From Selaginella moellendorffii (taxonomy: Eukaryota > Plantae > Lycopodiophyta): 64,000 nucleotides of DNA. The position numbers and the translations under genes are program-made. The stretch covers positions 3,902,443 through 3,966,442 of the forward strand of contig NW_003314265.1 in the NCBI RefSeq assembly GCF_000143415.4. Reading direction: 5' to 3'. Positions 2,400-64,000 of this stretch are shown piece by piece (position 1 is the first letter of the stretch; each line of letters opens with the position of its first letter). The notes beneath the pieces are model-generated. The model was not told the DNA's origin. It did not search any database and worked only from the letters and a program-made list of their open reading frames with translations.

Positions 2400-4042
2400 A
2401 CCTCCATAAATCCCATTCAGAACTTGGGGCTTGCTAGCCCCGCGAATGGCATCCACGCCACTCAACTTTTGCATTTGGTCCAAGTGCTCCACGTGTCCGA
2501 TCCCTTGACCGACACCCCAAGGCACCACCAACATACCAGCCCGTTACGCTAGGCCATGCCCAATCACCTTGGTCACATCGGTGGTCCAACACCACTTGCA
2601 TTGCAATCCCATCTCTCCAAGACTGGGCTATCCGTCCATGAGTGGTCATCCCAGATCCACTCCTTAGCATCCTTAGGATGCCCGCAGACATGGGAAATAG
2701 CCTTCCCCAATATCTCCTTTCTAGTCCCCACCAAGTCCCTTTCTGTCCATGGCCGTGTTCACCAACATTGCCACTGGATCAAGGCCCACAGGCCCAACCA
2801 CTAAGTCCAACTGTCCTCTAGGACTTCCTTACTGTGTGACTGTGTCCCTTGTCACCACACTAGAGGACTACTCCTCTTCCTTTCCACAGTCTGGGACTTT
2901 GGGGCAACATTTCGGAACACCGTGGCCCTACGCGGGCCTCGGGGGTACTCTCCTCGCCTTCTACCTTTGGGTGCTCTAGCCATGGGCTTAAAGCGAGGTT
3001 CCGTTGAGCCACACCAGGTATCCAAGTAGGTAGTGCCACCCACACTTGGACTGGGAGCATTGGCTAGTCGATCTTCTGGGGGAACTAGAGCTGGCTCTTG
3101 AACACTTCACCAAGCTACCCCGCTTGTCGGTCCGTGTTCACTCTAGTTTTGGACTTCCCAATGGGCAGCTCATCACCCAACACTGGGTCCGGCCTTCCTG
3201 GGCCAAACTGGCCTTTCCTGGCCAAACTGGCTCCACTGCAGTCCTCCCCCTTACTATACTTTTGGAGCTCACCAAACCCCCCAGGGTCTGGGAGACGAAC
3301 GCTTTGGGCTTTCACCCTCTCAGACTCGAACTCGGACTTGGACTTGGACTTGGACTCGGACTCGGATTCGGATTCGGACTTGGACTCGGACTCGGCCTCG
3401 GTCTCGGTCTCGGTCCCGATCTCGGTCTCGGTCTCGGTCCCGGTCTCGGTCTTGGTCCCGGTCTCGACTTCGGACTCCATTTCGGGTCCATCTCGGACTC
3501 CATCTCGGACTCCATCTCGGGTCCATCTCGGGTCCATCTCGGACTCCATCTCGGACTCCACCTCGGACTCCATCTCGGGTCCTTCTCGGACTCCATCTTG
3601 GACTCCATCTCGGGTCCATCTCGGGTCCCATCTCGGGTCCATCTCGGGTCCATCTCGGACTCCATCTCGGACTCCATCTTGGGTCCATCTCGAACTCCAT
3701 CTCGGACTCCATCTCGGGTCCATCTCGGGTCCACCTCGGACTCCACCTCGGACTCCATCTCGGGGTCCTTCTCGGACTCCACTTCGGACTCCAACTCGGG
3801 TCCATCTCGAACACTTCCACGTGTCATGCGTTGGTCCTTTTGGGTCCCTTTTTGGAGCCTCGCTTATTGCTCTCTTTGTGCTTGTTCCTCGAGCACTTTG
3901 TTGGGAGTTCCACTCCCACTCTCGACCTTTCAAGGCGGAGCTTTTAGTCCAAACGTGTTACGCTCGTTTGGCTTTCGCTTCGGCCACTACCACGTGGCAC
4001 CCCTCCGGCTCCACTTTGGGGCCTAGGGATTTTGTGTCTCAC
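2400..4042 (-). mobile_element. Nested insertion (probable retroelement/LTR-type fragment) carrying a 12-bp tandem array
   Basis: GC-richer block interrupting the Gypsy between gag and protease. Shares flanks (tactatacttttgga, gctttgggctttcaccc) with ~6300-7910 and ends in ...TCACA. Left boundary approximate. Confidence 0.55.
3320..3812. repeat. Tandem array of 6/12-bp units (ctcggactccat / ctcgggtccat / ctcggt)
   Basis: Directly visible. It explains the stop-free low-complexity ORFs on both strands. Confidence 0.95.
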
Positions 4043-7134: not shown

Positions 7135-7860
7135 TTAGTATTCAGACTCAGTTTTGGATTCGATCTCAAACTCGATTTCAGACTTGACCTTGGACTTTGT
7201 CTCAGACTTGATCGCGAACTTGACCTTGGACTTAGTCTTGGACTCAATCTCGGACTTGGTCTCAAACCTGATCTTGGACTCGGTCTCATCAGATGTTCTC
7301 TTTATCATTCCGGTCGTAGTTTCAGGATGCAAGTGCCTAAGGGGAACTCAATTTTGGACTCGATCTCGGATCAACCTCAGACTCAGTCTCGGACTCGATC
7401 TTGGACTCGATCTCAGACTCAATCTTGGACTCGATCTTAGATCTGACCTCGAACTCAATCTCGGACTTGATCTCAGACTTGGTTTTGGACTCGATCTCAA
7501 ATCTCGGACTTAGTCTCGAACTCGGTCTCGAACTCAGTCTTGGACTCGATTTCGGACTCGGTTTCGGACTTGATCTCAGACTTAGTCTCGAACTTGATTT
7601 CAAACTCAATCTCGGACTCGACCTCGGGCTCGACCTTGGACTCGATCTCAAACTTGATCTCAGACTCAATCTTGGATTGGACTCAATCTTTGACTTGGTT
7701 TTGGACCCGATCTCAGATCTCGGACTTGATCTTGAACTAGGTCTCAGAGTCAGTTCGGACTCAATCTCGGACTCGGTCTCAAACTTGGTCCCAAACTCAG
7801 TTTCAAACTTGGTCTCGGAGTCAGTCTCGGACTCAATTTCGGACTCAGTCTTATCCAATG
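7135..7860. repeat. Older copy of the 12-bp tandem array (gactcgatctcg-like) inside a second nested insertion (~6300-7910)
   Basis: Visible 12-bp periodicity and the same upstream flank as the 3320 array. Confidence 0.9.
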
Positions 7861-30667: not shown

Positions 30668-30733
30668 CAAAAGGGATTAGAAAAGGTTTACTTCCTTATA
30701 AATTACAAAGCTCTATTGGGTAGAAACCTAACA

Positions 30734-31324
30734 ATGGGCAAGCCAACTCTGGTGCTGGATCTCGATGGAACGCTGATTTGCGCTCGTAGGCTGAAAAACT
30801 CCTCAGGTATGGGAGCTGACATGGTAGTTGAGGGCTATGCCGTCTACAAGCGTCCGGGCCTTGACAAATTCCTGCGAGACATGGCAAAGCTGTATGAGAT
30901 TGTCATCTTTTCCTACAACTACGAGCCTTATGTGAATGGCATAGCGGACAAGCTGGATCCCACGGGAACTTTGATCTCCCAGAGGCTTAGCAGGGAATCG
31001 TGCCCTACCAGGAGCAAAGATCTGAGCGCCCAAGCATTCGGACGCGATTTAGCGAGGGTGGTGTGGCTTGATGACACTGAGACGGCTTTTGACAAGCAGC
31101 CGGGGAATGGGCTGGTGGTTCCCAATTTCATGGTTGAGATGAGCAATGGAAAGGACAGCTTGTTTGAGGATTTGCGGCCACACTTGGACGCCATTGTTGC
31201 CAACTGTGGAGAGGTGGATGTTCCATCTGCGCTCCAGAAGATTGGGAGAATTCAAGTTAGGAGTGCAAGTGGGAAACCTTGGGTTGTTCGTGTCAATCAA
31301 CGCCCAGAGAGAATAAATATTTAA
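30734..31324 (+). CDS. Intronless NIF/FCP1-family HAD phosphatase (SCP/TIM50-like)
   Basis: LVLDLDGTL (DxDxT), KRPGLDKFL, YEIVIFS, KDLS...GRDLARVVWLDD. Confidence 0.9.
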   Translation: MGKPTLVLDLDGTLICARRLKNSSGMGADMVVEGYAVYKRPGLDKFLRDMAKLYEIVIFSYNYEPYVNGIADKLDPTGTLISQRLSRESCPTRSKDLSAQAFGRDLARVVWLDDTETAFDKQPGNGLVVPNFMVEMSNGKDSLFEDLRPHLDAIVANCGEVDVPSALQKIGRIQVRSASGKPWVVRVNQRPERINI

Positions 31325-48764: not shown

Positions 48765-51110
48765 TGTAGTGGGATTTTAGTCGCTATTAGATTGATTTCA
48801 ATTTGAACCACTAACTCTTATATATAAACTAGGGTCTTTGGGCTAATTGATACTAGCTACCAAGGGCTAAAGTGAGAACCTTCTACAATCGTGGCAGTAA
48901 AAAAAAGAATTAATATGTAACTTTTAATACCTGTAATCACATTTGTGACAGATAGGTCTCATACTTTCACATTAGTGGAGTTGAGGGATAACTTTGATTA
49001 TCCCTAAAGAGTGATTGGATTTGGGATTTTGGTTTAGATTTAACTTTTACATTGTTTAGATCCCTTTTCATATAGCTTTTCTCACCTTCTTCTCTTTGTT
49101 ATTTCCTTTTAATGGTAGAGTAGCAACCTCCTCCCCCTTTAACTCTGGAGCAACAATTAGTGCAATTGCTCAATGCTATGCAATTTGTCAAGAATCCTTT
49201 AATTCTTGCCACATTCCTAACTCTCTCCAGATTCATGACCTACAAACTACATTCTTGACTTTTGAGACACTTCCTTATTCCTGACTCTTTGATTTCTTGT
49301 ATGATTCTTGATTCCCGAACCACATTTCTGATGATGACATGGCGCCTCCTCGACCTTAGCTATATTTAGGCCGTCCTTGATCTAAGAGTGGTGGAGCTTC
49401 ATCAACTTATAGTATATATAGGTTAGCCTTATTCCATTTCTCCACAATCTGAATTAACGCCAATTTAAGGTTTTTTCTTCGTCTCCACTAGCTTTTCTCT
49501 TTGTCTTTTACATTCTCCAGTCCTGATCTTGTTGAGGGTCTTGACAGTTTGATTCAGATTGTGCTTTTTGTTTTTACTTTAGCTCGTTTTGATTATTTGA
49601 TTGCCTTTGCCTTTTTCCCCCTTTTCTTTCTTTTTTGCCGATGGAGTCTCCAAGCCATCCTGATTCCTTCGCTGAAGTCCTTATAGAAATCCAATTTGAG
49701 AATACCAAGTTGAAGGCGGCCCTTCTTCACAAAGAACTTCACTGGGAAACTCACATTCGGTTCAGGAACTTTGCTTGATCCTTGAGCCGAAAGTGAAGCA
49801 AGCTCCTGTTGCAAGGCAAGCATTTGGAGCTTCATGGATTCCTGAACTAGATGAAGTTGATCTTCATACTTCAACATTGGCAGTACCCCACTCCTGAGTC
49901 TCAAATCGGCACGATCAGGACGTTGCTTGAAGGTGTAGCTTTGTCATGGTTTTCTCCTCTCCTGGAGAAGAGCATGAAAGGGGTCATGGTTCTGGAGTTG
50001 ATGGATCTTTAGTTGTTCAAAGAGAAGCTCGAAGCATGTTTTGGCGAGACAAATCAAGTTTGGGCTGTTACCACAAAGATGAGACGTCTCTTTCAGGGGT
50101 CTCGTCTTGCCTCGATCTATGCTGTGGAGTTTCAACTCCTTGCCTTGGACACTCAGTGGGATGAGCGGGCCCTAATTGATCAATTTCGTTTCGGCCTCAA
50201 CACGATGTCAAGGATTTATTGCTTACCATGGAAGATCCTATGGACTTATCGAACGCAATCAACAAAGATGTTCAATGTGACAATTGTCTCTTTGAACATC
50301 GTCAGGAAAGTCGTTGCACCGCCATTTTTCCATCCTAGACTTAGGAATTCCAGTTTGAGTCTTCGGGGCATACTTCTGAATCTACTTCTTTGGTCCCGAT
50401 GGATATTTCTGGTACTCCCTAACTCATTAAAGGGAAGATAAGTCCTATTGAGAAGCAACGTCGAGTATCTCAGAATCTTTGCCTTTACTATGTTGATCCT
50501 AATCACAAAGCAGCTGTGTGTCCCAAGAAGCATCCCCGACTGCTCAAGTTCACTCTGCCTCAAGGTGCACCTTTGTTGCAGTCGGGAAACGACCCTATCC
50601 AAACAAAGTAGGAGCTATCTGTTTGAACTCCCCGAATAAAAATCCATTTTCTTCTTTATTAAGCTCCTCACCACCTTTCATCAAAGCCACCATTAATTCC
50701 CACAACTTCCGCATCCTATGTCTTCTTTCTTTCACCGGACAATCAAGACTCAAGGCTTTGGTGCTACTGGACTCGAGTGCAACTTCCTGCTTCATGGAAA
50801 CGAACTTTGCTACCTAACATCACGTTCCTCTTTCTCCTACCATACGGGATCTAAGGGTTGAAGGCACCGATGAGCATTTTGTGTCTCCATTTTTTGGACT
50901 TAGGGAAATGTTGCATGTTCGAGTACACATCGGGTCCACTGTCATCAATATCACCTTCAACATCATCAACAACAGGTCCTTCTTTGTGGTGCTCGGCCTT
51001 CCTTGGTTCCAACTGCACCAGCCTCAGATCTGTTGGAAGGAATTACAGTTCATCTCTCCCACATCTTCCCCTACTGCTCATCGAGTCTGAATCAGGAAAA
51101 GTTTCCTAAA
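48765..51110 (+). mobile_element. Gypsy LTR (48765-49112) and PBS-like site, followed by a degenerate Tf1/Tcn1-like gag-protease
   Basis: TGTAGTGGGATTTT start, TGGTAGAG at 49113; gag LEACFGE...LFQG...YAVEFQLLALDTQWDERALIDQFRFGL; CLYY..NH...CP knuckle remnant; LLDSSATSCF protease. Confidence 0.85.
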
Positions 51111-51767
51111 CTTAAATTGGGGTTCTGTTCCTGACTTTACGAAGTCTTCACCCTCTGTGCTCCCTATCCTTTAATCCTCTTTTCCCTTTCTTCCATCTTA
51201 CATTAGACAATATCTTTGTCCCATCATTTCATTCAGTCGTATGTCTCCTCCTATCTCCACAATCACTATGAAAGAACTCCTTCACAAAGAATCTATTTTC
51301 CTTTTTGCTTTGCATGTTTCTCCTGTTAGTCTTCATAAGCTCTATTTCGTTAAAGTGGGAATTGTCATTATCCCACTTGTAAAATAAGGTTTCCAAACCT
51401 TTATATAGTATATAAATATAACAAAATTCAACTGCATTGAGGCACATGCCATTTTATTTTAAACAAGGAAATGTCTACTCAATCACTTCTCACTGCTTCA
51501 CCTCTCTCTTCTCCTTGTCATCGTCGTCCAATTTCTTTCCATCCTTTTAATATTGGCTCAGTTGCTCCGAGTCTAGGTGGAGCCCAAGTCCCCATTCAAT
51601 CTTTACTTTCCCCTTATTAATAAAACAACTTCGTAGACTTCCAATAACATGCTGTAACACTTCTAGTATAATGCAAATCCTCTCAAAGAATTGTCTTTTA
51701 ATATTAATACAATGGCATGGAACCCCATGCCATAATAAGTTACATTTTTAAATAAATACATGCCATC

Positions 51768-54700
51768 TCAGACTGTTATTTTTTGCCTCCAACGCTTATA
51801 CAATAATCTTGGAATTTCATCACTCTCCACACTATCAGGATTTAAACCCAATAGTAATGCCATCTCTTCTCTAATACGTCCACGCTCATGTTCAGTGGTC
51901 GAAGAACCCATCCGGTTGAGCAGATTATGGAGATGCGGATAGTGCTTGGCTAGACAATATACATGCCATAAATGATGACTGGTGTCTGTCCGATCAAATG
52001 GCTTCTGATATACCGTTCCATCTGCCATTTGGTTGATTTCTGCAGCCACCTCCTGGACTGGCCGGTTCTCTATCACCATCGCTTCAAGCCGTTTTGCAAG
52101 GTCCCCCAGAACATATGGTTTCTTCTCCCTAGTTTCCATACTGCAAGAGATGGGGTGCACTGCATATGTGTGCGTGTTCGCTGCAGTTTTAATCGGCGAG
52201 TCATCGATGATGAGGATTTCACTTGACCTAGCAGTCCGGTTCATCACTACAGCCTCTGCCTTGACGAAGATGGGCTTGCTACCCCTCACATGGACCATAG
52301 TCAAGCAATCCTCCTGCGTTAGGAGAAAGTCAAATGGTAATATTACTCGCGTCTGATCGTGCATCATCTGTAGCAACGTTAATGCATTGTGGCGCATCAT
52401 GGATGTCCAAACTCCCAATTGCAAATTGAACCCGGCCCTCTGTTTTAAGTGTCGCATGGTCATTATTAGATCCCGCAGTTTCTCCCGTGTGATTAATGTG
52501 AATCTGTCTCTTTTGACCAACTTGCGACCGCAGGCTTTGGAGGGTGCAGTGACATTCGAGGACGAGCCACGCTCATGGGAGAAAAGGACACCGTTCAGAT
52601 CAAAAACGATACAGTACTTTCGCCGTGACTCTGAAATGAAATGCGTTAGCATAAAAAATGGTACAAGTCAATTTTACCATCTACAATATTAGCGAATGGT
52701 GCTCCCGATGGTCGTTTAGAGGGTTTTGGTCGAGGAAACGTGAAGGGCGGAAATACTCTCCTCTGCAATGTGGGGTCAATCGCATCCGATGGCGTGTGGG
52801 CACATGCCATTTCAGCTGTAGACTCTGGTACAACTGGCTCAACAGTGGCATGGGGTGGTTCCGATGGCGTGTGATCACACGCCATTTCAGCTGGTGCCTC
52901 CGTTGGCAAAGTGGACATGACCGAACAGGCAGCAGGGGCGGTGTAGGGAGGTTCCAACGGCGCGTAGTCAGACGATTGGGCACACGTTGGAAATGAGGAT
53001 ACGACCGGCTCGGCGGCTGGGGCGGCCTCATGCGGGTCCAATGGTGCCTGGTCACCGTCAGTTGGATACGTGGACAAGATTGACTCAGTGGTATGGGCAG
53101 CATCAAGTGGAGCGTGGTCAGCTTGCTTGGCGTTGATATGGATAGTAGCCTCCACCAGCTCTGATGACTTTTGCAGGCAAGTAGAGTCCACTGGCGGATC
53201 CATATGCATGTCCAAATATCTCCCTTCGATTGAGATGGTATCCTCCCGTGCTACTAAAAACAAACTCATTAGCACATTGAATCGACTATACTGTATTTAC
53301 CATCAACTGCTATTGAGGAACTAGGATCGATATCACTTGGGCGCACTGCTGATTCTGAAGGATTGGACATACGTTTCGACCCTTGCTTGGCACTATCCTT
53401 CCTCGACACTAAAGGCTAGAGTTTGTATCTTAATTCAACTGAATAATCTCTACTTACCATTTCTTCTGCGACCTACATGGACAATGTTAGAAATGGTAAA
53501 AGGTTAGGAATGAATGTACTATTATTTACCTGATGGTTTGTCTTGTATGACCTTCCTCCGCTGCTCTTTGGCCACCTCAGGCTGGCCATCATTGTCATCA
53601 TCGTCATCGTCGTTATTGTGATCGTCACCATTGTGAGGACCATCCAAGTCCTCTTCGTCCTCCTCTTCTTCGTCCTCCTCTTCTTTGTCCTCCTCTTCGT
53701 CCTTCTGCTCTTCCTGCTCATTATCTTTCTCTGGCTCCTCATCCCCCTCTTGCATTTCTTCCATAGGCTGCTCAGGTTGGATTGCTTGTTTTTCCAGGAC
53801 CATCTTGGAAAAATCATCTGGCCGAGTCTCCATCTCAAAATACAAGACATCCATAGCCTGTTTTAGTGCGTGACCTAGGACCGTATCCTCACCCGACTGT
53901 CTTAACATGGTTTCTGCACGTTCTTGCACCCTTCGAAGACGACGAGATGAGAAAAACGTGGCCCTGACTTGAAAAGCATCCCTCATCCATTGTACCTCTC
54001 CATTGAGATTGGGGAAGGGGAGTCCGCCATAGGAATCTGAGTCAGAAGGTGGTGACTGGCTCCTTTCACTCAGCCCTTGATCTGCAATGAATGGCATGAG
54101 CACACACGCCATAACCGCGAGGCATTACCTATCATCTTTTCGTTGCCCTTCTTCCTGTTCGAATCAAACGCCTCTGATCCCGACGACTGTCCAACGTGCT
54201 TTCGCTTTTTATGACCACTGTCAGTTTGAGCTTGGCTGGTGCTTGCCTGTTTTGCCTTTGAAGAAGTGTCTCCTGCAAGGAATGGCATGAGACCACATGC
54301 CATTGCAAATATAATTTGTACCTCCTTTTTTCCTATTGCTTGTCTGTTTGTCCTTCTTCGACGCGCCACCAGTGCGCTTTTCAGTCCTCGTGTCTGAATA
54401 TTCACAACGATCTATAATCAAAATGGCATGAGGCCTCACGTGACCTTACCTTGTGCAGGTTGTGACCTCGGCCTAACATCAGTAGCTGTTAACGCCGTTT
54501 CAGCATCTGGGGGTGGCCACGCTCCTGCATACAGAGCTTGTGAGATAACATTTAAACTTAAAGTGCGTACTCACCAGGTTCATAGAGAAGATACTGTTTT
54601 TCTTTGGCAACTGTAATTATATGCTCCATTGAAGTCACCTCTTCAATGGAGTTTGTCACCGCAACACACGGGACACCCTTGAGTAGTGCGGCTCGAAAGA

Positions 54701-57358
54701 ATAGTCCGCCGCAGTTGTACTCGACAACGCATTTGCCCTTGGAGTCACCCGCTATTGCGTTGAAGACCCAGGTGAGCATTTCCCATGCTGCACCTGGAGC
54801 TTTCTTTGGATTCGAAAGCTCCATAGCCGTCTTCAGTTCCTCAGGCACGGGTAAATTGACCTCCCTCAGATCAATTCGATCGGCTTTGTTGAACGAAGCT
54901 GGGAAGTCACTCCAGTCCCACTCTGCTGCAGGACCAATAACAAGGGCGACTGTGAAGATGCGGACATTCGTCGGTATCTTCTTCTTAGCCATTATCCCAT
55001 GGATCTCCCGCATCTCCTTGCCTTTCAACCGAGCCTTCACCTCGTTCAAGGCCTTCCAGAACTTGTGATAGGATTCGGAGTCGTAGATCATATAGTGGAC
55101 TGAAGATTCCACCTCCGCAAGTCCCACCATTAAGTCAATGATGGAGCTGACTTCGTCTGCATGAGTGATCTCCTCGTTTGTGAAGTCCATCACACAAAAG
55201 ATGTTCTTGACCTGCTCATCTCCGCGGGAAACGATACTCCTCCACCTTTGATCCTCATCCGAATTCACGTATACCCGGTAAGGTTCTCGATAGGCCTCTG
55301 CTACGGGGTCGAGCTGTTTCTGAAGCCGGCGGTCGACATCCCTCTTAATGAAATTTGGATACTGATCCAACTTCTCAGCTTTACTTTTCGTGGCATCCCG
55401 CAGCAGATCGATGAACTTGGGGGCCCCCTTCACGTACTCGTCGATGTCTTCATTTGACAAGTCCAGCTCTTCCATCATCTCTTGCGTGCTGTCGATGCTC
55501 ACCCTCGCCACGGCCACTTGCTCGAAGATCCAATCCTTCAATAGCGCACGAGCTCTCAGAGTCGTGCACAAGTCCTCGTATGTCACAATATGGCCGGGAG
55601 TCATTTTGGTCTTGTTGAAGACTACCTCACCACGTAGAAGAGCATTAGCCACTGTCAGAAGGTTGTCGTCGTCTAGAGACCGCGAGAAACGCAAGGCGTT
55701 GAGCTTCAAATCTTTGGGCTTCCGGCCGTCCTCCACACCCATTGAGTTTAGCAACTCCCCGTCATGGTACCTCCTCAGCACATCTACCCATTTGTCAAAA
55801 ACAACTTTTGTCGCGAGTAGAATGTTATGGATGCTGAGTGTGTCATTGACCCCCAGTGTTTTCGAGAGAAGACTCGAGAATTCCTGCAATGGAAATGGCG
55901 TGAGGCCACATGCTATGCCACATGCAACGAGGCTTACCTGCCAGGCGCTAGTTGCTAGTGCACGTCCTTGTCCTGGTTTTTGTGGCTTCTTCAGTTGAAC
56001 CCAGAGCTTCCGTGTTCGTGCCAATGTCTCGTGCAGACCCGATTTGTAGCACGTTTCTTGCTTGACATTCTGCGCGTGGGAGATGTATATGATAGATCGG
56101 AGGGGCGAGTTGCCTTTTATCAGGCGGACAACTCTTGTCTTGAAGACTTTCTTCACCTCCTCGCCCACCATAATATCCACAACTATCTGTTGCATCGCCA
56201 AGCTAGAATGCTGCCCGGAGACGGCATAGAACCGGATGTTCTGATCGTCCAACACCTTCCTATTGATCAAGTCTGGAAACCTTGTCTCGCCCTTCATTGT
56301 TCGGTAGTAGGGGATCACGTCTGCGATGTCGGGTGTTACTGGACTTGCCAGCATCTTCTGCTTCAGTTTCTCCACCCACTCATCAGATACTAGCCTGTGG
56401 TTGTATTTGCTTTGGATCTCGATACGGCTCACGTCGATTGTATATACTTTGTTGGAATAGTAACAAGTACTATTATCTGCGACGATTTTTGCTGCCTCTT
56501 CTTGCTCTTTCTGCTCTTTGTGGCTCTTCTTTTTGGTGGGTGTAGTGTTCGAACCCGAGGCAATGGCATCACCGAGTAGCTTCTTTTTTGGAGCAGCAGA
56601 GTCGGACGTCGGCTTGAGCTTGACCACCCTTTTCTGCTTCGGGGTAGTTTCCAGATCAACCCCCTTCCCCTTCGCTTCGCAAACTGGAGGCACTCTCAAC
56701 GGCTCAATGTTGGAATATAGTTTTTGAACATCGCCGTAGGTGAGGTCCGTGGATTCCATGTGATCTTCATAGACCCGCAACGTCTTTGAAATTGTGGGCC
56801 TTCTGGACAACCTCTCCCTAGCTCCCTCTAGGAATTCCTCATAGCCGCTGCCCCCCTCCGGGAAGCCGCTAGGATGTGCAAGGTGGATCTTGAAGGCGGA
56901 CGCTGTCTCTACCACAAGTGCCAGTCCATATTCTTGCATGGAACTGCATGGAGTGTCTGTCACTTGGATGAGGATCCCCATGCATTCTTTTCTCCCACCA
57001 TCTGTGTTGTACAGCATCAGATCCTCGCCTTCCATCCCGAAAGTCCAACTGGTGAGCTCCTCCCCCTTCTCTGCATCCACATTGACAGTGGCTGGAAGAA
57101 GAACGCAATTCCTCGCCTGTTCAAAAATGCACAACAATTAGAGCTGACAGATGAAAAGCTAGCAGCTGGAAATAACGTGAGGCCACACGCCATTCACCAC
57201 TGCATCAGATGTCTTGAGGCTGCATCCTAAGATGGCGTGAGGCTACACGCCATCTGTAACCGGACTGCACTCGAGAGCCCAATCGGTGCATGCCAATGTT
57301 GCTACTGAATGGCATGTGGCCTCATGCCATTTTCTACTTCGTCTAAAAGACTTACCAT
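51768..57358 (-). CDS. Predicted 11-exon ~1637-aa protein: ParB/Srx-like domain + degenerate DNA MTase-like fold + acidic/low-complexity linker + FCP1/NIF HAD domain
   Basis: Exons 57358-57356, 57116-55938, 55883-54575, 54524-54450, 54411-54322, 54272-54129, 54081-53530, 53472-53458, 53408-53301, 53253-52678, 52630-51768. All introns are GT-AG and phase-compatible (4914 nt total). Exon 1 (ATG only) is the least certain. Motifs: IDVSRI..NHRLVSDEWVEKL...FYAVSGQHS; KCVVEYNCGG..FRAALLKGVPCVAV; VFDLNGVL...VWTS...IIDDSPIK. Confidence 0.75.
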
Positions 57359-57559
57359 TTGAAGCCGAATGGAGGCCGTGACAATCGAGGCCGGACTCGC
57401 TGGCGAATGTGCACTGTGTGTGCAGCGGATCGTAGCAGCAAGGCTACTCTGCCACTTACAGTTGGAGAGTGGTGCTGAAATCTCCCGGGACGCCAAGTGG
57501 GCTGCGTGTGGGTGGTGGAGTGGGCGGCGGAGTTGGCGGCGAAGTTACAAACTGGGTGT

Positions 57560-57745
57560 GTCTTGAGGTGGACGCCGATGCACACGAGCGCGATGCGAGC
57601 GCGAGTGTGATGCAAGCGCGAGTGGACACCGATGCACACGAGAAACCTGTAGAGAAGTGAGCGTGATCGCGAGTGGGAGCGCGATGCGAGCGGGAGCGCG
57701 AGTGTGATGCGAGCGCGAGCGCGAGTGTGCGAGCGCGAGTACAAA
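57560..57745. repeat. CpG-rich low-complexity repeat (gatgcgagcgcgagtg)
   Basis: Directly visible upstream of the minus-strand gene. Confidence 0.8.
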
Positions 57746-58373
57746 GCAAAATGCAAAACCTAACCTCACACGCGCGAAATGTCACAACGGTTGGTAATCC
57801 CGCCACGTCATCATTCCTCGGACTTGGGCGCCACCATTAATTTCTGGATTGCCACGCGCATGCAAGCACGCAAAATCCAAAAGAAATCCGCAACGTCATC
57901 ATTCCTCGGACTGCATGCACGCGAAATCCAAAAGAAAGATCATGATTGGGATATCATTTAATACCCTCGCTATATTTATACCATGCATGATTGGATATTC
58001 CAAAGCATCTTGTATTTCCAAAAATGGCAGATGTTCAGCTAAATAAAGAAATTCTATCTGTTTCTATTTTTCTCTCAAATCAATATTATAGTGTGTGGGC
58101 TCATGCAATTTTGAACCAAAGAAACCCAAAAAACGTTGGACCCAAAATATTTTGAAAAAACCCAAAAAACCCTAAATATTTTAAACCCAAAAATCCAGGC
58201 GTCCTGTGGCGTTATTCCTTGAATGGCGTGTGGGCGCATGCCATTTTCAGGGCCAAATGCTGAATGGAGAAAAATTCCCTTTCAGTGCAAATGCTGCAAG
58301 AGGCAGATGCCGAGCACAAAGGACTGTAACTACCTCACATGACACAGATAAACTTTTCTCTATTTGGCAAAGA

Positions 58374-61259
58374 TAAACTTTATAGCGTGTGGGCTCATGC
58401 AATTTTGAACCCAAAAAATGCACCAAAAAATTCTCGGCGTCATCTGGCATTATCTCTTGAATGGCGTGGGGCCGCATGCCATTTTCAGGGGCACATAGGA
58501 GTATATTCCTAGGATATTCTGACACGCGCGAGATTTTTTTGAGTTTTCTGGAGATCCAACCGTTAGATCGCAACTAGATTTTACAGAATGGTATACAATG
58601 TCTTTCTTGATGACTCTGCAAAGAAGCATCTCGATCGGACACCACATGAGACCACACGAGCCTTACAATGTTTCAGGGGCATTTGCCATAGATCCGACCG
58701 TTATTTTGCTCCAAGATTTTACAGTTTGGTGTGCATTGACCTTTCCATCGACACTGCAAAGGGACATCACAATCAGATGCGGGATCACAAGAAACTAACT
58801 TCACTAACTCTGGTTTCACCAAGATCTACGTAAGGAGTTATGAAATGAAAGGACCCTCTCTATTAAAATGTGTTTATGGTCCTAGGGGCATTGTGACATA
58901 TCAAAGGATTTTGCATCAAGTTCTGTATTTGCATGTTTATCAAGCTACTGAATTGCTAAACCCTAAACCCTAAACCCTAAACCCTAAACATGTGGCAAAT
59001 GCTGCGTGAAGAAAGATGCCCTTTCTGGGCAAATGCTGTAAGAGGCAGATGCCGAGCAGATGTATCTCAGGCTAGCGAAGGGGACGAACGAAAGCTAGCT
59101 ATAAACATGACGGGATGCAAATAGATTACTAGGCTGGTCCTACGAAAATCAAAAACCATAATTGAAAACATTGAAAATGCAAAAAGAAAGGTTTATAATA
59201 TTTTTGAATTTTAGGCAACCAAAGGAATGTAAGTAGGGCATGTGTTTGTAAGTTTAAAAATGCCTCAACCACTTAAATTCCCAAGTAAATAAAGCTGTTT
59301 CTATTTTTGGTACAGGTAAACTTTATAGCGTGTGGGCTCATGCAATTTTGAACCCAAAAAATGCACCAAAAAATTCTCGGCGTCATCTGGCATTATCTCT
59401 TGAATGGCGTGGGGCCGCATGCCATTTTCAGGGGCACATAGGAGTATATTCCTAGGATATTCTGACACGCGCGAGATTTTTTTGAGTTTTCTGGAGATCC
59501 AACCGTTAGATCGCAACTAGATTTTACAGAATGGTATACAATGTCTTTCTTGATGACCCTGCAAAGAAGCATCTCAATCGGACACCACATGAGACCACAC
59601 GAGCCTTACAATGTTTCAGGGGCATTTGCCATAGATCCGACCGTTATTTTGCTCCAAGATTTCACAGTTTGGTGTGCATTGACCTTTCCATCGAAACTGC
59701 AAAGGGACATCACAATCAGATGCGGGATCACAAGAAACTAACTTCACTAACTCTGGTTTCACCAAGATCTACGTAAGGAGTTATGAAATGAAAGGACCCT
59801 CTCTATTGAAATGTGTTTATGGTCCTAGGGGCATTGTGACATATCAAAGGATTTTGCATCAAGTTCTGTATTTGCATGTTTATCAAGCTACTGAATTGCT
59901 AAACCCTAAACCCTAAACCCTAAACCCTAAACATGTGGCAAATGCTGCGTGAAGAAAGATGCCCTTTCTGGGCAAATGCTGTAAGAGGCAGATGCCGAGC
60001 AGATGTATCTCAGGCTAGCGAAGGGGACGAACGAAAGCTAGCTATAAACATGACGGGATGCAAATAGATTACTAGGCTGGTCCTACGAAAATCAAAAACC
60101 ATAATTGAAAACATTGAAAATGCAAAAAGAAAGGTTTATAATATTTTTGAATTTTAGGCAACCAAAGGAATGTAAGTAGGGCATGTGTTTGTAAGTTTAA
60201 AAATGCCTCAACCACTTAAATTCCCAAGTAAATAAAGCTGTTTCTATTTTTGGTACAGGTAAACTTTATAGCGTGTGGGCTCATGCAATTTTGAACCCAA
60301 AAAATGCACCAAAAAATTCTCGGCGTCATCTGGCATTATCTCTTGAATGGCGTGGGGCCGCATGCCATTTTCAGGGGCACATAGGAGTATATTCCTAGGA
60401 TATTCTGACACGCGCGAGATTGTTTTGAGTTTTCTGGAGATCCAACCGTTAGATCGCAACTAGATTTTACAGAATGGTATACAATGTCTTTCTTGATGAC
60501 CCTGCAAAGAAGCATCTCGATCGGACACCACATGAGACCACACGAGCCTTACAATGTTTCAGGGGCATTTGCCATAGATCCGACCGTTATTTTGCTCCAA
60601 GATTTTACAGTTTGGTGTGCATTGACCTTTCCATCGACACTGCAAAGGGACATCACAATCAGATGCGGGATCACAAGAAACTAACTTCACTAACTCTGGT
60701 TTCACCAAGATCTACGTAAGGAGTTATGAAATGAAAGGACCCTCTCTATTAAAATGTGTTTATGGTCCTAGGGGCATTGTGACATATCAAAGGATTTTGC
60801 ATCAAGTTCTGTATTTGCATGTTTATCAAGCTACTGAATTGCTAAACCCTAAACCCTAAACCCTAAACCCTAAACATGTGGCAAATGCTGCGTGAAGAAA
60901 GATGCCCTTTCTGGGCAAATGCTGTAAGAGGCAGATGCCGAGCAGATGTATCTCAGGCTAGCGAAGGGGACGAACGAAAGCTAGTTATAAACATGACGGG
61001 ATGCAAATAGATTACTAGGCTGGTCCTACGAAAATCAAAAACCATAATTGAAAACATTGAAAATGCAAAAAGAAAGGTTTATAATATTTTTGAATTTTAG
61101 GCAACCAAAGGAATGTAAGTAGGGCATGTGTTTGTAAGTTTAAAAATGCCTCAACCACTTAAATTCCCAAGTAAATAAAGCTGTTTCTATTTTTGGTACA
61201 GGTAAACTTTATAGCGTGTGGGCTCATGCAATTTTGAACCCAAAAATGCACCAAAAAAT
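58374..61259. repeat. Tandem array of near-identical 943-bp units (~3.05 copies), with a degenerate partial unit at ~58060-58330
   Basis: Unit starts at 58374, 59317, 60260 and 61203. Duplicated ORFs in the track are offset by exactly 943. Confidence 0.97.
58956..58989 (+). repeat. Interstitial plant telomere repeat (CCCTAAA)x4+, repeated at 59899-59932 and 60842-60875
   Basis: ctaaaccctaaaccctaaaccctaaaccctaaac in each unit. Confidence 0.95.
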
Positions 61260-61699
61260 GCTCGACTAGCATTATTCTTTGAATGGCGTGTGGCCTTATG
61301 TTGAGCATTATTCTTTGAATGGCGTGTGGCCTTATATTGCCATAAATGGACGTACACACACAGCGTAATTATTCCTTTACACGGCGAATAATCTTGGCGC
61401 GGATCGCTGACATGGCATGGCAAAGTTCGAATCACTGACATGGCACAGCTGGATCGAGGCAAGGACATGATGTGACAAAGTTCAACCTCCGACAGCAAAG
61501 TCTAGAAGCTACTCAGTTTGAAATTTGTCAGAGGAATCATAAGATCTGGTTTGTCAGAGGATTTGATGTGACGTTCAAGCGTGTGTTATTTTTGAATTCT
61601 CGAACTCATTCCTAGGTCTATCATTTTTGTGCGCCGTGTTCTTGGTTCCGCTGAGCGCAGTGAGCGCTGCTTGTGTAAGCGGCGTTGTGGGCTGTGGTT

Positions 61700-61845
61700 T
61701 ATGCGTCTACGAGCGGTTGCGGCATTGCGAGCGCCATTGCGAGCGGCAGTTTATGCGAGTGGCAGTTTGTGCGAGCGGCGCTACGAGCAGTTGCGGTGTT
61801 CCGAGCGGCGCTACGAGTAGTTGCGGTGTTGCGAGCGGCACTGTC
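61700..61845. repeat. CpG-rich low-complexity repeat (gcgagcggc...ttgc)
   Basis: Directly visible upstream of the transposase gene. Confidence 0.8.
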
Positions 61846-62205
61846 TTTGGTGTGGCTACCGCTTCCTCTTGATATTCGGCACTTGTGCTTCCTGGTATGT
61901 TCACCATGGAATGGCTTAGGACCACATTTCGAAATGGCATGAGGCCACATGCCATCTTGGGCCCTTGCAATTTCATGGCTAGCGTATTGTCATGTATGTT
62001 TTTACTTGCCTGCAGCTGTGTGTATATCAAGATGGCATGAGGGCTCATGCCAATTTTGTGAATGCGAAATTTCACGTGGGTGTCAATAGCATGTTTGAAT
62101 AATGGCATGTGGCCTCATGCTATTGAGGTTGTTTGGTATGTTATGATTTAGGCCATTCTCCAATCATTTTTTGTATGGTCTTAACTTCTTTTCTGCACTT
62201 TCAGA

Positions 62206-64000
62206 ATGGCCTTCAGGGTTGGGGAAAAGGTTTACATTTTGAATGGTGGGAAGAGAGTTGCAAAAGGGACCCTTGTGTCTATGGATCGGAACTTTGTTAT
62301 ACACTGTGAAAGGCTTGGGGAAGGCAATGCTGCTGTATCAGTAGAGACTGTCTTCGATGGGAATGTGGTCGCTATTGAACGAGGAGAGATGGTCGTCGGG
62401 GTAAATGTTGTTGTTGCCTTGAAAAATCTTCAGAAGAAAGCAGATGTTGGGGACAGCGCAAGTGCGACGCATGTTCCCTCCGTGGATCTTAAGAACCGTG
62501 CTACATGGATTCAGGCAAAAGTGTTTCTAAACAACCCCGAGGGGGAGGTGGTAGCTGAGGGCTTAGCCACAGTTGTCGATCCAAGAGATGCGGTTGCTAA
62601 TCAAGAATTGGGCTGGGATGATATTGGAGTTGCGATTTTAGAGGTTGTTGACACAGAAGAAAACAGTCTGACTATTGGAAGCATTGTGCGGTGGAAATTG
62701 AGGCACTTAGTGTTTGAGAATGTGAAGGATTCACAATCAAACACCACTACAACTGATGACAGAACATCTCTTCATGGGAAAAGAAAGTACACCTTCCTAA
62801 AGCGCAGCCAAAGGGATCTGAGCAACGAACCGAAAAGGCAGAAAATGGCGATGGAGGTTCGAATGGTCTCGACAGTTGCTTGTTGCAAGAGGAGGTGCTG
62901 TCAACATGCTGATTGGGATGCTATTGAAGAGGAGAGAGCAAGATACAAGACATTGTCCTGGAAGGCAGCTCGCAATTTTGTGTATGAGGCATTACGGTCA
63001 TCTGTTGATGCTTCAGAACATCAGGTGGGGGGCATGGTCTTCCAGAGGGGTTTGGTCTGCATGAAGGCATGGAGAATCATTTATGGAGTCCCTCGAAGCA
63101 CATTCTACAGAATCAAAACTGAGTTCGAGGAACAAAGGGTTCAACAGGCAGTCCATGGGAACGACGGTACGCACAAAACCAGGGGTCATGTTGTATATGG
63201 AGAGGCAATCTTCAAGAGGTTTGTCGAGACATGTAGCGAGCAGCAACCACATAAAACCCGCCTCTTGGAAGATGGAACACGAGACACCCAACGAGTTCTC
63301 CCTTCCATGTATACCAAGGGGGCCATATTGGAAGATGTGAATCGGGAACTCCAGAGTAATGGCTACAGGAAGCTGAGCCAATCTAGATTTAGTAGATTGT
63401 GGAGCAACAGGTTCAGGGATGTGAGTATAGGAAAGTACTCCAGCTTTTCAAAGTGTGACGAGTGCACTGCTATCAAAATGGCTTTGTCGAAGAATTCTTG
63501 CAGCGCTCAAGAGCGAGAGACGTTGGTTAGAAGGCGGCTCGACCACAACATCGAGCAGAGAAGCTGCAGGACTGCATATTATCATAACAGGATTCTCTCC
63601 ATGGAGAGACCTGACTCTTACCTCTGCATCATCCACGACAAAATGGACCAGAAAAAGACGTGCTTACCTCGACTCAATTCTGCCCCCAAGGCAATCTCTT
63701 CATCCATGCAGCTGCCTGTGTCTCTGTTTGGCATAATCGCTCATGGGCATGGTGCCCAGAACTATGGGAACTTCTTTGTACCTCTATGGGGTGGCGGGGG
63801 TGCAAACATGATGATTGCGTCCCTAGCAAAACACTTAAGGTCTCTGCAAAGTGCGCAGACTGAGCTGAACGGCCAACCCTTGCATAAGGCCCTTGTCGAT
63901 CGAACCCCATACAGGGTTCAGCTGGAGGAGGAGCAAAGGCTTGCAGTATCGCGTGGGGCCCCATGCCATCCCAGTGAATATGTTGGCCGTCAGATTGTAG
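62206..64000 (+). CDS. Sola-like (DDD/E) transposase, 3'-truncated by the window edge (>598 aa)
   Basis: Stop-free frame from ATG 62206 to the end of the window. CCKRRCC; CMKAWRIIYGVPRSTFYR (HTH-like); FSKCDEC...H (Zn-binding); IIHDKMDQKKTCLP (putative first catalytic Asp); GANMMI. The two N-terminal repeats resemble the En/Spm Tnp1-like domain. Confidence 0.8.
   Translation, partial: MAFRVGEKVYILNGGKRVAKGTLVSMDRNFVIHCERLGEGNAAVSVETVFDGNVVAIERGEMVVGVNVVVALKNLQKKADVGDSASATHVPSVDLKNRATWIQAKVFLNNPEGEVVAEGLATVVDPRDAVANQELGWDDIGVAILEVVDTEENSLTIGSIVRWKLRHLVFENVKDSQSNTTTTDDRTSLHGKRKYTFLKRSQRDLSNEPKRQKMAMEVRMVSTVACCKRRCCQHADWDAIEEERARYKTLSWKAARNFVYEALRSSVDASEHQVGGMVFQRGLVCMKAWRIIYGVPRSTFYRIKTEFEEQRVQQAVHGNDGTHKTRGHVVYGEAIFKRFVETCSEQQPHKTRLLEDGTRDTQRVLPSMYTKGAILEDVNRELQSNGYRKLSQSRFSRLWSNRFRDVSIGKYSSFSKCDECTAIKMALSKNSCSAQERETLVRRRLDHNIEQRSCRTAYYHNRILSMERPDSYLCIIHDKMDQKKTCLPRLNSAPKAISSSMQLPVSLFGIIAHGHGAQNYGNFFVPLWGGGGANMMIASLAKHLRSLQSAQTELNGQPLHKALVDRTPYRVQLEEEQRLAVSRGAPCHPSEYVGRQIV

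Follow-up and report, generated by a model that had tools for sequence, protein, structure and literature searches.

A repeated palindrome in the predicted introns and intergenic DNA of a two-gene transposon-like element of Selaginella moellendorffii

The element and its palindrome

We analyzed 64,000 nucleotides (nt) of the Selaginella moellendorffii genome (RefSeq assembly GCF_000143415.4, contig NW_003314265.1, positions 3,902,443 to 3,966,442; here, the window, with position 1 its first letter). The right-hand part of the window is occupied by a repeated element that resembles a DNA transposon and carries a 22-nt gapped palindrome, ATGGCRTG-N6-CAYGCCAT, in many copies. Its two genes, a predicted multi-intron accessory gene and a transposase-like frame of the DUF7869 family, point away from each other across a region of 943-base-pair (bp) tandem repeats. 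The features of the element other than introns are as follows:

51335 to 64000, no strand: left part of the repeated two-gene DNA-transposon-like element, placed by loose contig ends at 51334/51339 and by the confinement of the motif; the right end lies beyond the window
51768 to 57358, minus strand: predicted 11-exon accessory gene, one open frame after removal of ten GT-AG introns
62206 to 64000, plus strand: DUF7869-family transposase-like frame, open at the window end
61895 to 62204, plus strand: leader of the transposase gene, candidate splice sites GT 61895 and AG 62204, motif at 61934, 62032, and 62102
51431 to 51733, no strand: two motif copies between the accessory-gene stop codon and the left end of the element
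52789 to 52885, no strand: two motif copies in exon 10, within a duplicated 75-nt Pro/Ala-rich linker
58088 to 61340, no strand: intergenic motif copies, two per 943-bp tandem unit with (CCCTAAA)x4.9
61283 and 61319, intergenic: two motif half-sites in a 36-nt duplication
63948: motif copy inside the transposase-like frame

When the whole window was scanned at up to 3 mismatches, 24 copies of the palindrome were found, all within 51431-63969, and none on the host side (1-51400); in ten Markov-shuffled versions of the window, matches averaged 0.3. Within the minus-strand gene, 7 of 9 copies are intronic although only 12% of its length is intron; with copies placed uniformly, P would be 1.1e-6. 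The gene's other two copies fall in a coding exon, a further one falls in the transposase frame, and the remaining 14 are outside coding genes, so that 21 of 24 are non-coding. Only two copies lie within 400 nt of the left end of the element.

The initial annotation of this DNA had noted that five of ten predicted introns carry the motif, with three copies in intron 1 and a half copy in a 38-nt intron. This is borne out: all five introns, at the coordinates given, are of the GT-AG type on the minus strand, and the intronic copies are at 57172, 57232, and 57309 (intron 1), 55895, 54423, 54282, and 54091. In the copy at 54423 (intron 4), one arm matches at 8 of 8 positions and the other at 5 of 8. 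The motif takes up 41% of the 54-nt intron, 58% of the 38-nt intron, 45% of the 49-nt intron, 47% of the 47-nt intron, and 28% of intron 1. The accompanying remark that several of these introns contain little else mostly reflects small intron size: because the motif-free introns are equally tiny (47 to 57 nt), any 22-mer would fill about half of such an intron.

Contigs of other sequencing runs break away at 51334-51339, inside a long terminal repeat (LTR) retrotransposon fragment. Nearly all of 51337-57600 was assembled in a run with only 2.84 Mb of contigs, and for this reason the interval is assigned to a repeated element. The window copy differs from that run at 55 places, 37 of which are T>C or A>G, as would fit decay of the window copy by methylcytosine deamination. 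The LTR-retrotransposon fragment itself (49400-51334; Retrotrans_gag, E = 7.5e-4) is broken and ends where the element starts, and a hairpin is predicted near the left end of the element at 51335-51400 (z = -2.7; 3 of 200 shuffles). At 57423, contigs of three runs match rightwards and diverge leftwards, suggesting that another element or a derivative has the same upstream region. GC-rich repeats of the GAGCGC type lie upstream of the accessory gene (57496-57739), and similar repeats lie upstream of the transposase (61738-61839). Between them, at 58355-61250, the 943-bp unit is repeated in three-plus copies of about 98% identity; every copy contains (CCCTAAA)x4.9 as well as the motif twice.

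Predicted introns and the place of the motif within them

The ten segments predicted to be introns of the accessory gene, all on the minus strand, are as follows (branch-point-like pentamers are placed relative to the 3' splice site):

57117 to 57355: intron 1, 239 nt, phase 0, three motif copies, separate CTAAT at -22
55884 to 55937: intron 2, 54 nt, phase 0, motif at 55895, CTCAC with its A at -18
54525 to 54574: intron 3, 50 nt, motif-free, CTCAC at -17
54412 to 54449: intron 4, 38 nt, one intact arm at 54423, CTCAT at -18; retention gives a stop
54273 to 54321: intron 5, 49 nt, motif at 54282, CTCAT at -16; retention gives a stop
54082 to 54128: intron 6, 47 nt, motif at 54091, CTCAT at -16; retention gives a stop
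53473 to 53529, 53409 to 53457, 53254 to 53300, and 52631 to 52677: introns 7 to 10, motif-free

All have GT-AG ends, and their removal restores one frame of 1,637 amino acids (aa), as for predicted spliceosomal introns of the U2 type. The predicted protein varies from 1,625 to 1,637 aa with the splice sites of intron 9 (53254-53300), whose donor and acceptor both have in-frame alternatives. The eight 3' introns (52631-54574) are all in phase 1, so that the exons between them are symmetric, and this may reflect exon duplication in the linker.

We infer that the ten segments are spliced because of the open frame and the homologues. Keeping any of nine introns would lead to a premature stop, the exception being intron 2, which is in frame and free of stops. 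That exception could be taken to mean that the segments are not introns at all, as could X20, a run of guessed type that is possibly RNA, in which one contig bridges intron 1 unspliced and parts of introns 2 and 6 also occur. We regard this as hardly credible, in view not only of the stops in the other nine but also of the following: (i) the 18 residues encoded by intron 2 are missing from the homologous proteins; (ii) in homologues from the liverwort Riccia, a single protein has both the ParB-like and the NIF domain; and (iii) exonic insertions in another copy of the element are 9, 12, and 15 nt long. Moreover, X20 may be DNA rather than RNA, because it extends over the upstream region too and shares the loose end of the DNA runs.

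The position of intron 2 is old. The spliced form outscores the unspliced form against seven of eight eukaryotic gene models (the eighth alignment ends before the junction). For Selaginella LOC9650508, the gene models of RefSeq and JGI disagree by two residues at precisely this point, which suggests that LOC9650508 also has an intron there. Nine relatives, five of them recorded from contigs of Logan, ENA, or JGI, have matches that end near intron 2; in eight, the match is lost after an aromatic residue, one further residue, and Val, and the ninth ends earlier. Because a phase-0 GT donor is translated as Val, a Val at the break points to an unspliced phase-0 intron. The position is thus common to liverwort and Selaginella homologues and older than the divergence that has left these proteins about 25% identical.

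Introner-like elements are several introns with a common sequence, at novel positions. The initial annotation had suggested that motif insertion created the introns in this way, and such mobile introns might have given rise to introns 4 to 6, perhaps others. For the 54-nt intron the idea is contradicted by its position, which, being common to homologues about 25% identical, means that the motif did not create it. The other introns lie in a linker that cannot be aligned to homologues, which leaves room for such an origin of introns 4 to 6; in addition, introns 2, 5, and 6 are alike after the motif, with 9 to 11 nt to the AG, and introns 2 and 6 have the same 6 nt just after the donor. However, no pair of introns is significantly alike outside the motif (best p = 0.02 of 28 pairs; introns 2 and 6, p = 0.14), their 5' parts being unlike, no precise intron-less form exists in any DNA contig among the joints listed, and most motif copies are outside introns. 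An introner-like origin is therefore unsupported for the other introns, and we consider it very improbable overall.

The palindrome itself has properties of a site on duplex DNA. Its spacer is 6 nt in 21 copies, versus at most two copies at any other length from 0 to 14, and copies whose flanks are unrelated retain both arms and the length of the spacer. The arms do not covary at their variable position, a CpG versus TpG/CpA site: of 18 independent copies, 9 have it paired (Fisher p = 1.0). Because the spacer is fixed and the arms do not covary, a duplex DNA site for a dimeric protein would fit better than an RNA hairpin. A comparison of intron 1 across copies that are about 99% identical speaks neither for nor against conservation of the motif: the motif occupies 66 of its 239 bases and contains none of its 10 variable positions, where about 2.8 would be expected, but five of these positions come from one noisy run alone and a deletion in that run at 57238 hits the motif.

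That the palindromes act as RNA hairpins tuning splicing, another suggestion of the initial annotation, is highly improbable. Folding predicts a stem of 8 bp for introns 5 and 6, where it would bury the branch A, but not for introns 2 and 4; folding of the four tiny introns is no better than chance (z from -1.06 to +1.20 versus shuffles), the loop is always 6 nt and the arms lack covariation, many copies are intergenic, and an Rfam search gave no matches. The proposal that introns serve as slots for regularly spaced protein-binding sites fares better in one part: the fixed spacer, the lack of covariation, the confinement to the element, and the non-coding bias all agree with protein sites. The spacing between neighboring copies is irregular (36 to 1846 nt), and with five of ten introns free of the motif nothing speaks for introns being kept for its sake. 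Thus, the occurrence of the motif in predicted introns is real, and its earlier interpretation is partly supported.

Within the four tiny motif introns, the motif has the same orientation and ends 9 to 11 nt before the end of the intron. In all four it supplies a sense-strand CTCAY with its A at -16 to -18, the sole CT[ACG]AY in range, and the arm nearest the 3' end is intact; the distal arm is decayed in introns 2 and 4. A CT[ACG]AY with its A at -15 to -22 is present in 9 of the 10 introns, as a separate pentamer in five of the six others. The joint chance of such CTCAY placement is about 0.003, computed after the pattern was seen. Half of the motif likely doubles as the branch point in these introns.

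The palindrome could instead be bound by a transcription factor of the host, or be neutral, having spread through duplication and conversion and persisting in introns only for its usable CTCAY. Many copies do lie in local duplications of 36, 75, and 943 nt, arms are decayed in introns 2 and 4, and the uniform phase 1 of the eight 3' introns fits exon duplication. On the other hand, 51 kilobases (kb) of host sequence contain no copy, both arms and the spacer length persist despite unrelated flanks, and relatives of the element have different palindromes (see below). We consider this explanation improbable.

The accessory protein and the transposase as candidate binders

The predicted accessory protein contains, in order, a ParB-like domain (SGQHS), a helical region, a decayed N6/N4-methylase-like domain, an acidic/Pro-rich linker, and an FCP1/NIF phosphatase domain. 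The last is identified by a profile search (NIF, expect value [E] = 5e-6). GQH is invariant in the ParB-like part, for which an Atlas lead (ParB_N, 0.92, row 30; PF02195 on 35% of members) falls below threshold and Pfam and PDB sequence searches gave no match. Likewise, an Atlas lead for the methylase-like part (N6_N4_Mtase, 0.88) is below threshold. PF01555 is matched by four of four Riccia homologues at 15 to 17 bits (E of 0.005 to 0.02), versus a cut-off of 26.7; the window exon has no PF01555 match and its DPPY-type catalytic motif is decayed in the alignment, so that it does not qualify as an N6/N4 methylase. The Riccia homologues keep the same order of SGQHS domain, decayed N6/N4-methylase-like domain (four of four), and FCP1/NIF domain (three of four), and one of them, R1sor_008595, is numbered next to a DUF7869 gene, R1sor_008596, a pairing that matches the one in the window.

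A HMMER search gave 17 matches, of which three (P0010, P0013, and P0024) were judged repeat-driven and dropped. A word-based protein search with residues 200-852 of the large frame gave no match, PDB sequence searches gave nothing meaningful, and none of 66 candidates from a metagenome scan for accessory-gene loci was confirmed. The single-sequence fold of exon 3 is unreliable (predicted local distance difference test [pLDDT], 35). LOC9650508 of S. moellendorffii (P0026), a 449-aa homologue with the helical and methylase-like parts only, is possibly a domesticated host gene.

The transposase-like frame has seven relatives with PF25273 (E from 1.6e-71 to 6.5e-20) and one 97% copy without a Pfam entry; it has no Mutator Pfam match, its relatives being DUF7869. 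Complete relatives share three conserved Asp-bearing motifs, IIHDKMD, QLDN, and GHTHEDID, and their predicted order of strands and helices is like that of RNase H. The three motifs may point to a DDD, Sola-like type. Fold comparison gave no match at E ≤ 0.001 and no RNase-H match, from a low-confidence model whose catalytic region has a pLDDT of <50. Viral sequences scanned for the transposase yielded 56 candidates, none of which was confirmed.

Among 34 related transposase loci, 16 were covered by the palindrome scan, and the motif of the window is absent from all 16. In L003, whose transposase is 40% identical, a different palindrome is matched nine times, in eight cases upstream of the transposase (shuffle mean, 0.1), and L001, L002, L004, and L005 have a third palindrome in common, often in 56- to 152-nt repeats. 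Palindromes thus appear to turn over family by family among DUF7869 elements. TTCAA-N-TTGAA repeats at L012 and L013 were dropped, since they lie within an AT-rich telomere-like array; at L012 a telomere-like array lies about 5 kb upstream of the transposase match.

Binding of the palindrome by some element-encoded protein, accessory product or transposase taken together, is probable. Our preferred reading, which we put forward tentatively, is that the palindrome is a double-stranded DNA site of a dimeric element protein, most likely the accessory product, that keeps its own family transcribed, as VANC does for VANDAL. The accessory protein would bind as a dimer and thereby mark copies of its own family, and once bound it would keep them transcribed, an anti-silencing role suggested by analogy with VANC. 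Motif copies would accumulate where coding constraint allows, i.e., in intergenic DNA, tandem repeats, linkers, and pre-existing introns. In introns of 38 to 54 nt, the 22-mer would fit one way only, with its CTCAY half providing the branch point 16 to 18 nt before the 3' splice site.

The alternative that the DUF7869 transposase itself binds the sites, for transposition or self-activation, like TnpA or the AtMu1 transposase of Spm and Mu, is the main rival, if a less likely one. A transposase relative has a confidently predicted winged-helix-like segment (residues 37-126, pLDDT about 75 to 85, best Z score 7.1), there are weak N-terminal matches to TNP1/EN/SPM (E = 0.055 in the window and 0.043 in L003), palindromes in relatives cluster upstream of the transposase, and transposases and TnpA are known to act through clustered motifs (bioRxiv 10.64898/2026.08.24.746577). 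However, a Z score of <8 denotes a common structural arrangement, and the TnpA sites described there are terminal, whereas here the copies are interior and intronic, the left-end pair apart.

Besides the unspliced X20 contig, several observations weigh against the accessory protein as an anti-silencing binder whose sites double as branch points. (i) No recognized sequence-specific DNA-binding domain is present in the accessory protein, the ParB-like and methylase-like calls and the exon 3 fold being as weak as described above, and the predicted winged-helix domain of the transposase relative could equally be the binder. (ii) A DUF7869 neighbor accompanies only one of five Riccia accessory homologues among the records listed, and no accessory-gene homologue was found in any of the 34 transposase loci, the closest loci being <5.7 kb. 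(iii) Four of the nine closest loci (L006 to L009) have no repeated palindrome. (iv) Among 63 unvalidated, heuristically chosen host intron candidates, at most seven have such a pentamer at -15 to -24; this control is weak, and the case for a branch point is drawn from the introns of the element itself.

A fuller version of the preferred reading, more doubtful than its core, would see here an undescribed two-gene transposon family of non-seed land plants, whose accessory protein (ParB-like clamp, dead methylase as reader, FCP1-like effector) binds the family palindrome, possibly methylated, and frees its own copies from silencing, with sites placed in the branch points of tiny introns and protected by splicing. 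Binding to a methylated site is considered because one free motif position swaps CpG for TpG. If anti-silencing by the accessory protein is true, it would have arisen in parallel in another transposase family (in liverworts and probably the lycophyte), with an unrelated multi-domain accessory protein, implying that the strategy arose repeatedly; it would also provide a defined pair of protein and motif. The use of one sequence as both DNA site and RNA branch point would be an example of binding sites fitted into minimal introns. Should the binding fail, an undescribed cargo gene and a dispersed repeat would remain, a modest result.

Elsewhere in the window, the host sequence has short introns and CCCTAAA repeats. 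A separate host frame at 30668-31324 contains, by eye, a NIF/HAD-like DLDGT motif, and two related 12-mer tandem arrays (3319-3809 and 7154-7851) have long open frames on both strands.

Comparison with known systems

No description of DUF7869 or of the pairing of its gene with the accessory gene was found in the literature searched, which included few subscription papers. Unlike introner-like elements, the introns described here have only the motif in common; one of them sits at an old position, and the majority of motif copies are not intronic. Sola DDD transposons are likewise DNA elements of non-seed plants, but the element in the window is larger than most of them (PMC10741241) and has a multi-intron accessory gene. 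The DDD core of Sola may have a counterpart in the three Asp-bearing motifs and RNase-H-like predicted order of the complete relatives. Replitrons resemble it as high-copy DNA elements of non-seed plants and in a hairpin near the end; however, the relatives of its transposase have H-T-H (GHTH) rather than HUQ, and the element is >12 kb long as opposed to 2 to 4 kb (PMC10288648). Identity with Replitrons, as defined there, was rejected: GYxxK is absent from the longest frames of L001 to L005, and GHTH stands in place of HUQ.

For the accessory protein, phage loci with ParB and DNA methylase genes offer a likeness, in that ParB-type and N6/N4-methylase-type domains occur together (PMC4738411). 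The available text of that paper also describes inactive methylases in transposon proteins (DIRS1) and names haptophyte, chlorophyte, and chytrid clades of eukaryotic ParB/methylase derivatives, with no mention of Selaginella. The protein described here differs in its decayed DPPY-type motif and in its fusion to an FCP1 domain.

Motif arrays in introns together with sequence-specific anti-silencing have been described in Arabidopsis VANDAL and Spm (PMC5735166; bioRxiv 10.64898/2026.08.24.746577). Spm with TnpA, and AtMu1, have clustered family-specific motifs read by an element protein, and a weak TNP1/EN/SPM match is found here; their motifs and hypomethylation are terminal, whereas the motifs here are mostly internal (bioRxiv 10.64898/2026.08.24.746577), and the left end of the element has no CACTA start.

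The closest known system appears to be the anti-silencing of the Arabidopsis Mutator-like VANDAL elements by VANC, a likeness in the presumed manner of working, as judged from sequence, and not necessarily in membership. In VANDAL, an accessory gene stands beside the transposase, and a short family-specific motif, which differs between families, occurs in introns, intergenic DNA, and terminal DNA and is spread by tandem repeats; VANC21 is bound through this motif in intronic, intergenic, and terminal non-coding regions (PMC5735166). The differences are that the element of S. moellendorffii has a DUF7869 transposase and an unrelated accessory architecture, that its motif is a 22-nt gapped palindrome rather than a 9-nt motif arrayed in one orientation (PMC5735166), and that its introns are tiny, with the motif overlapping the predicted branch point.

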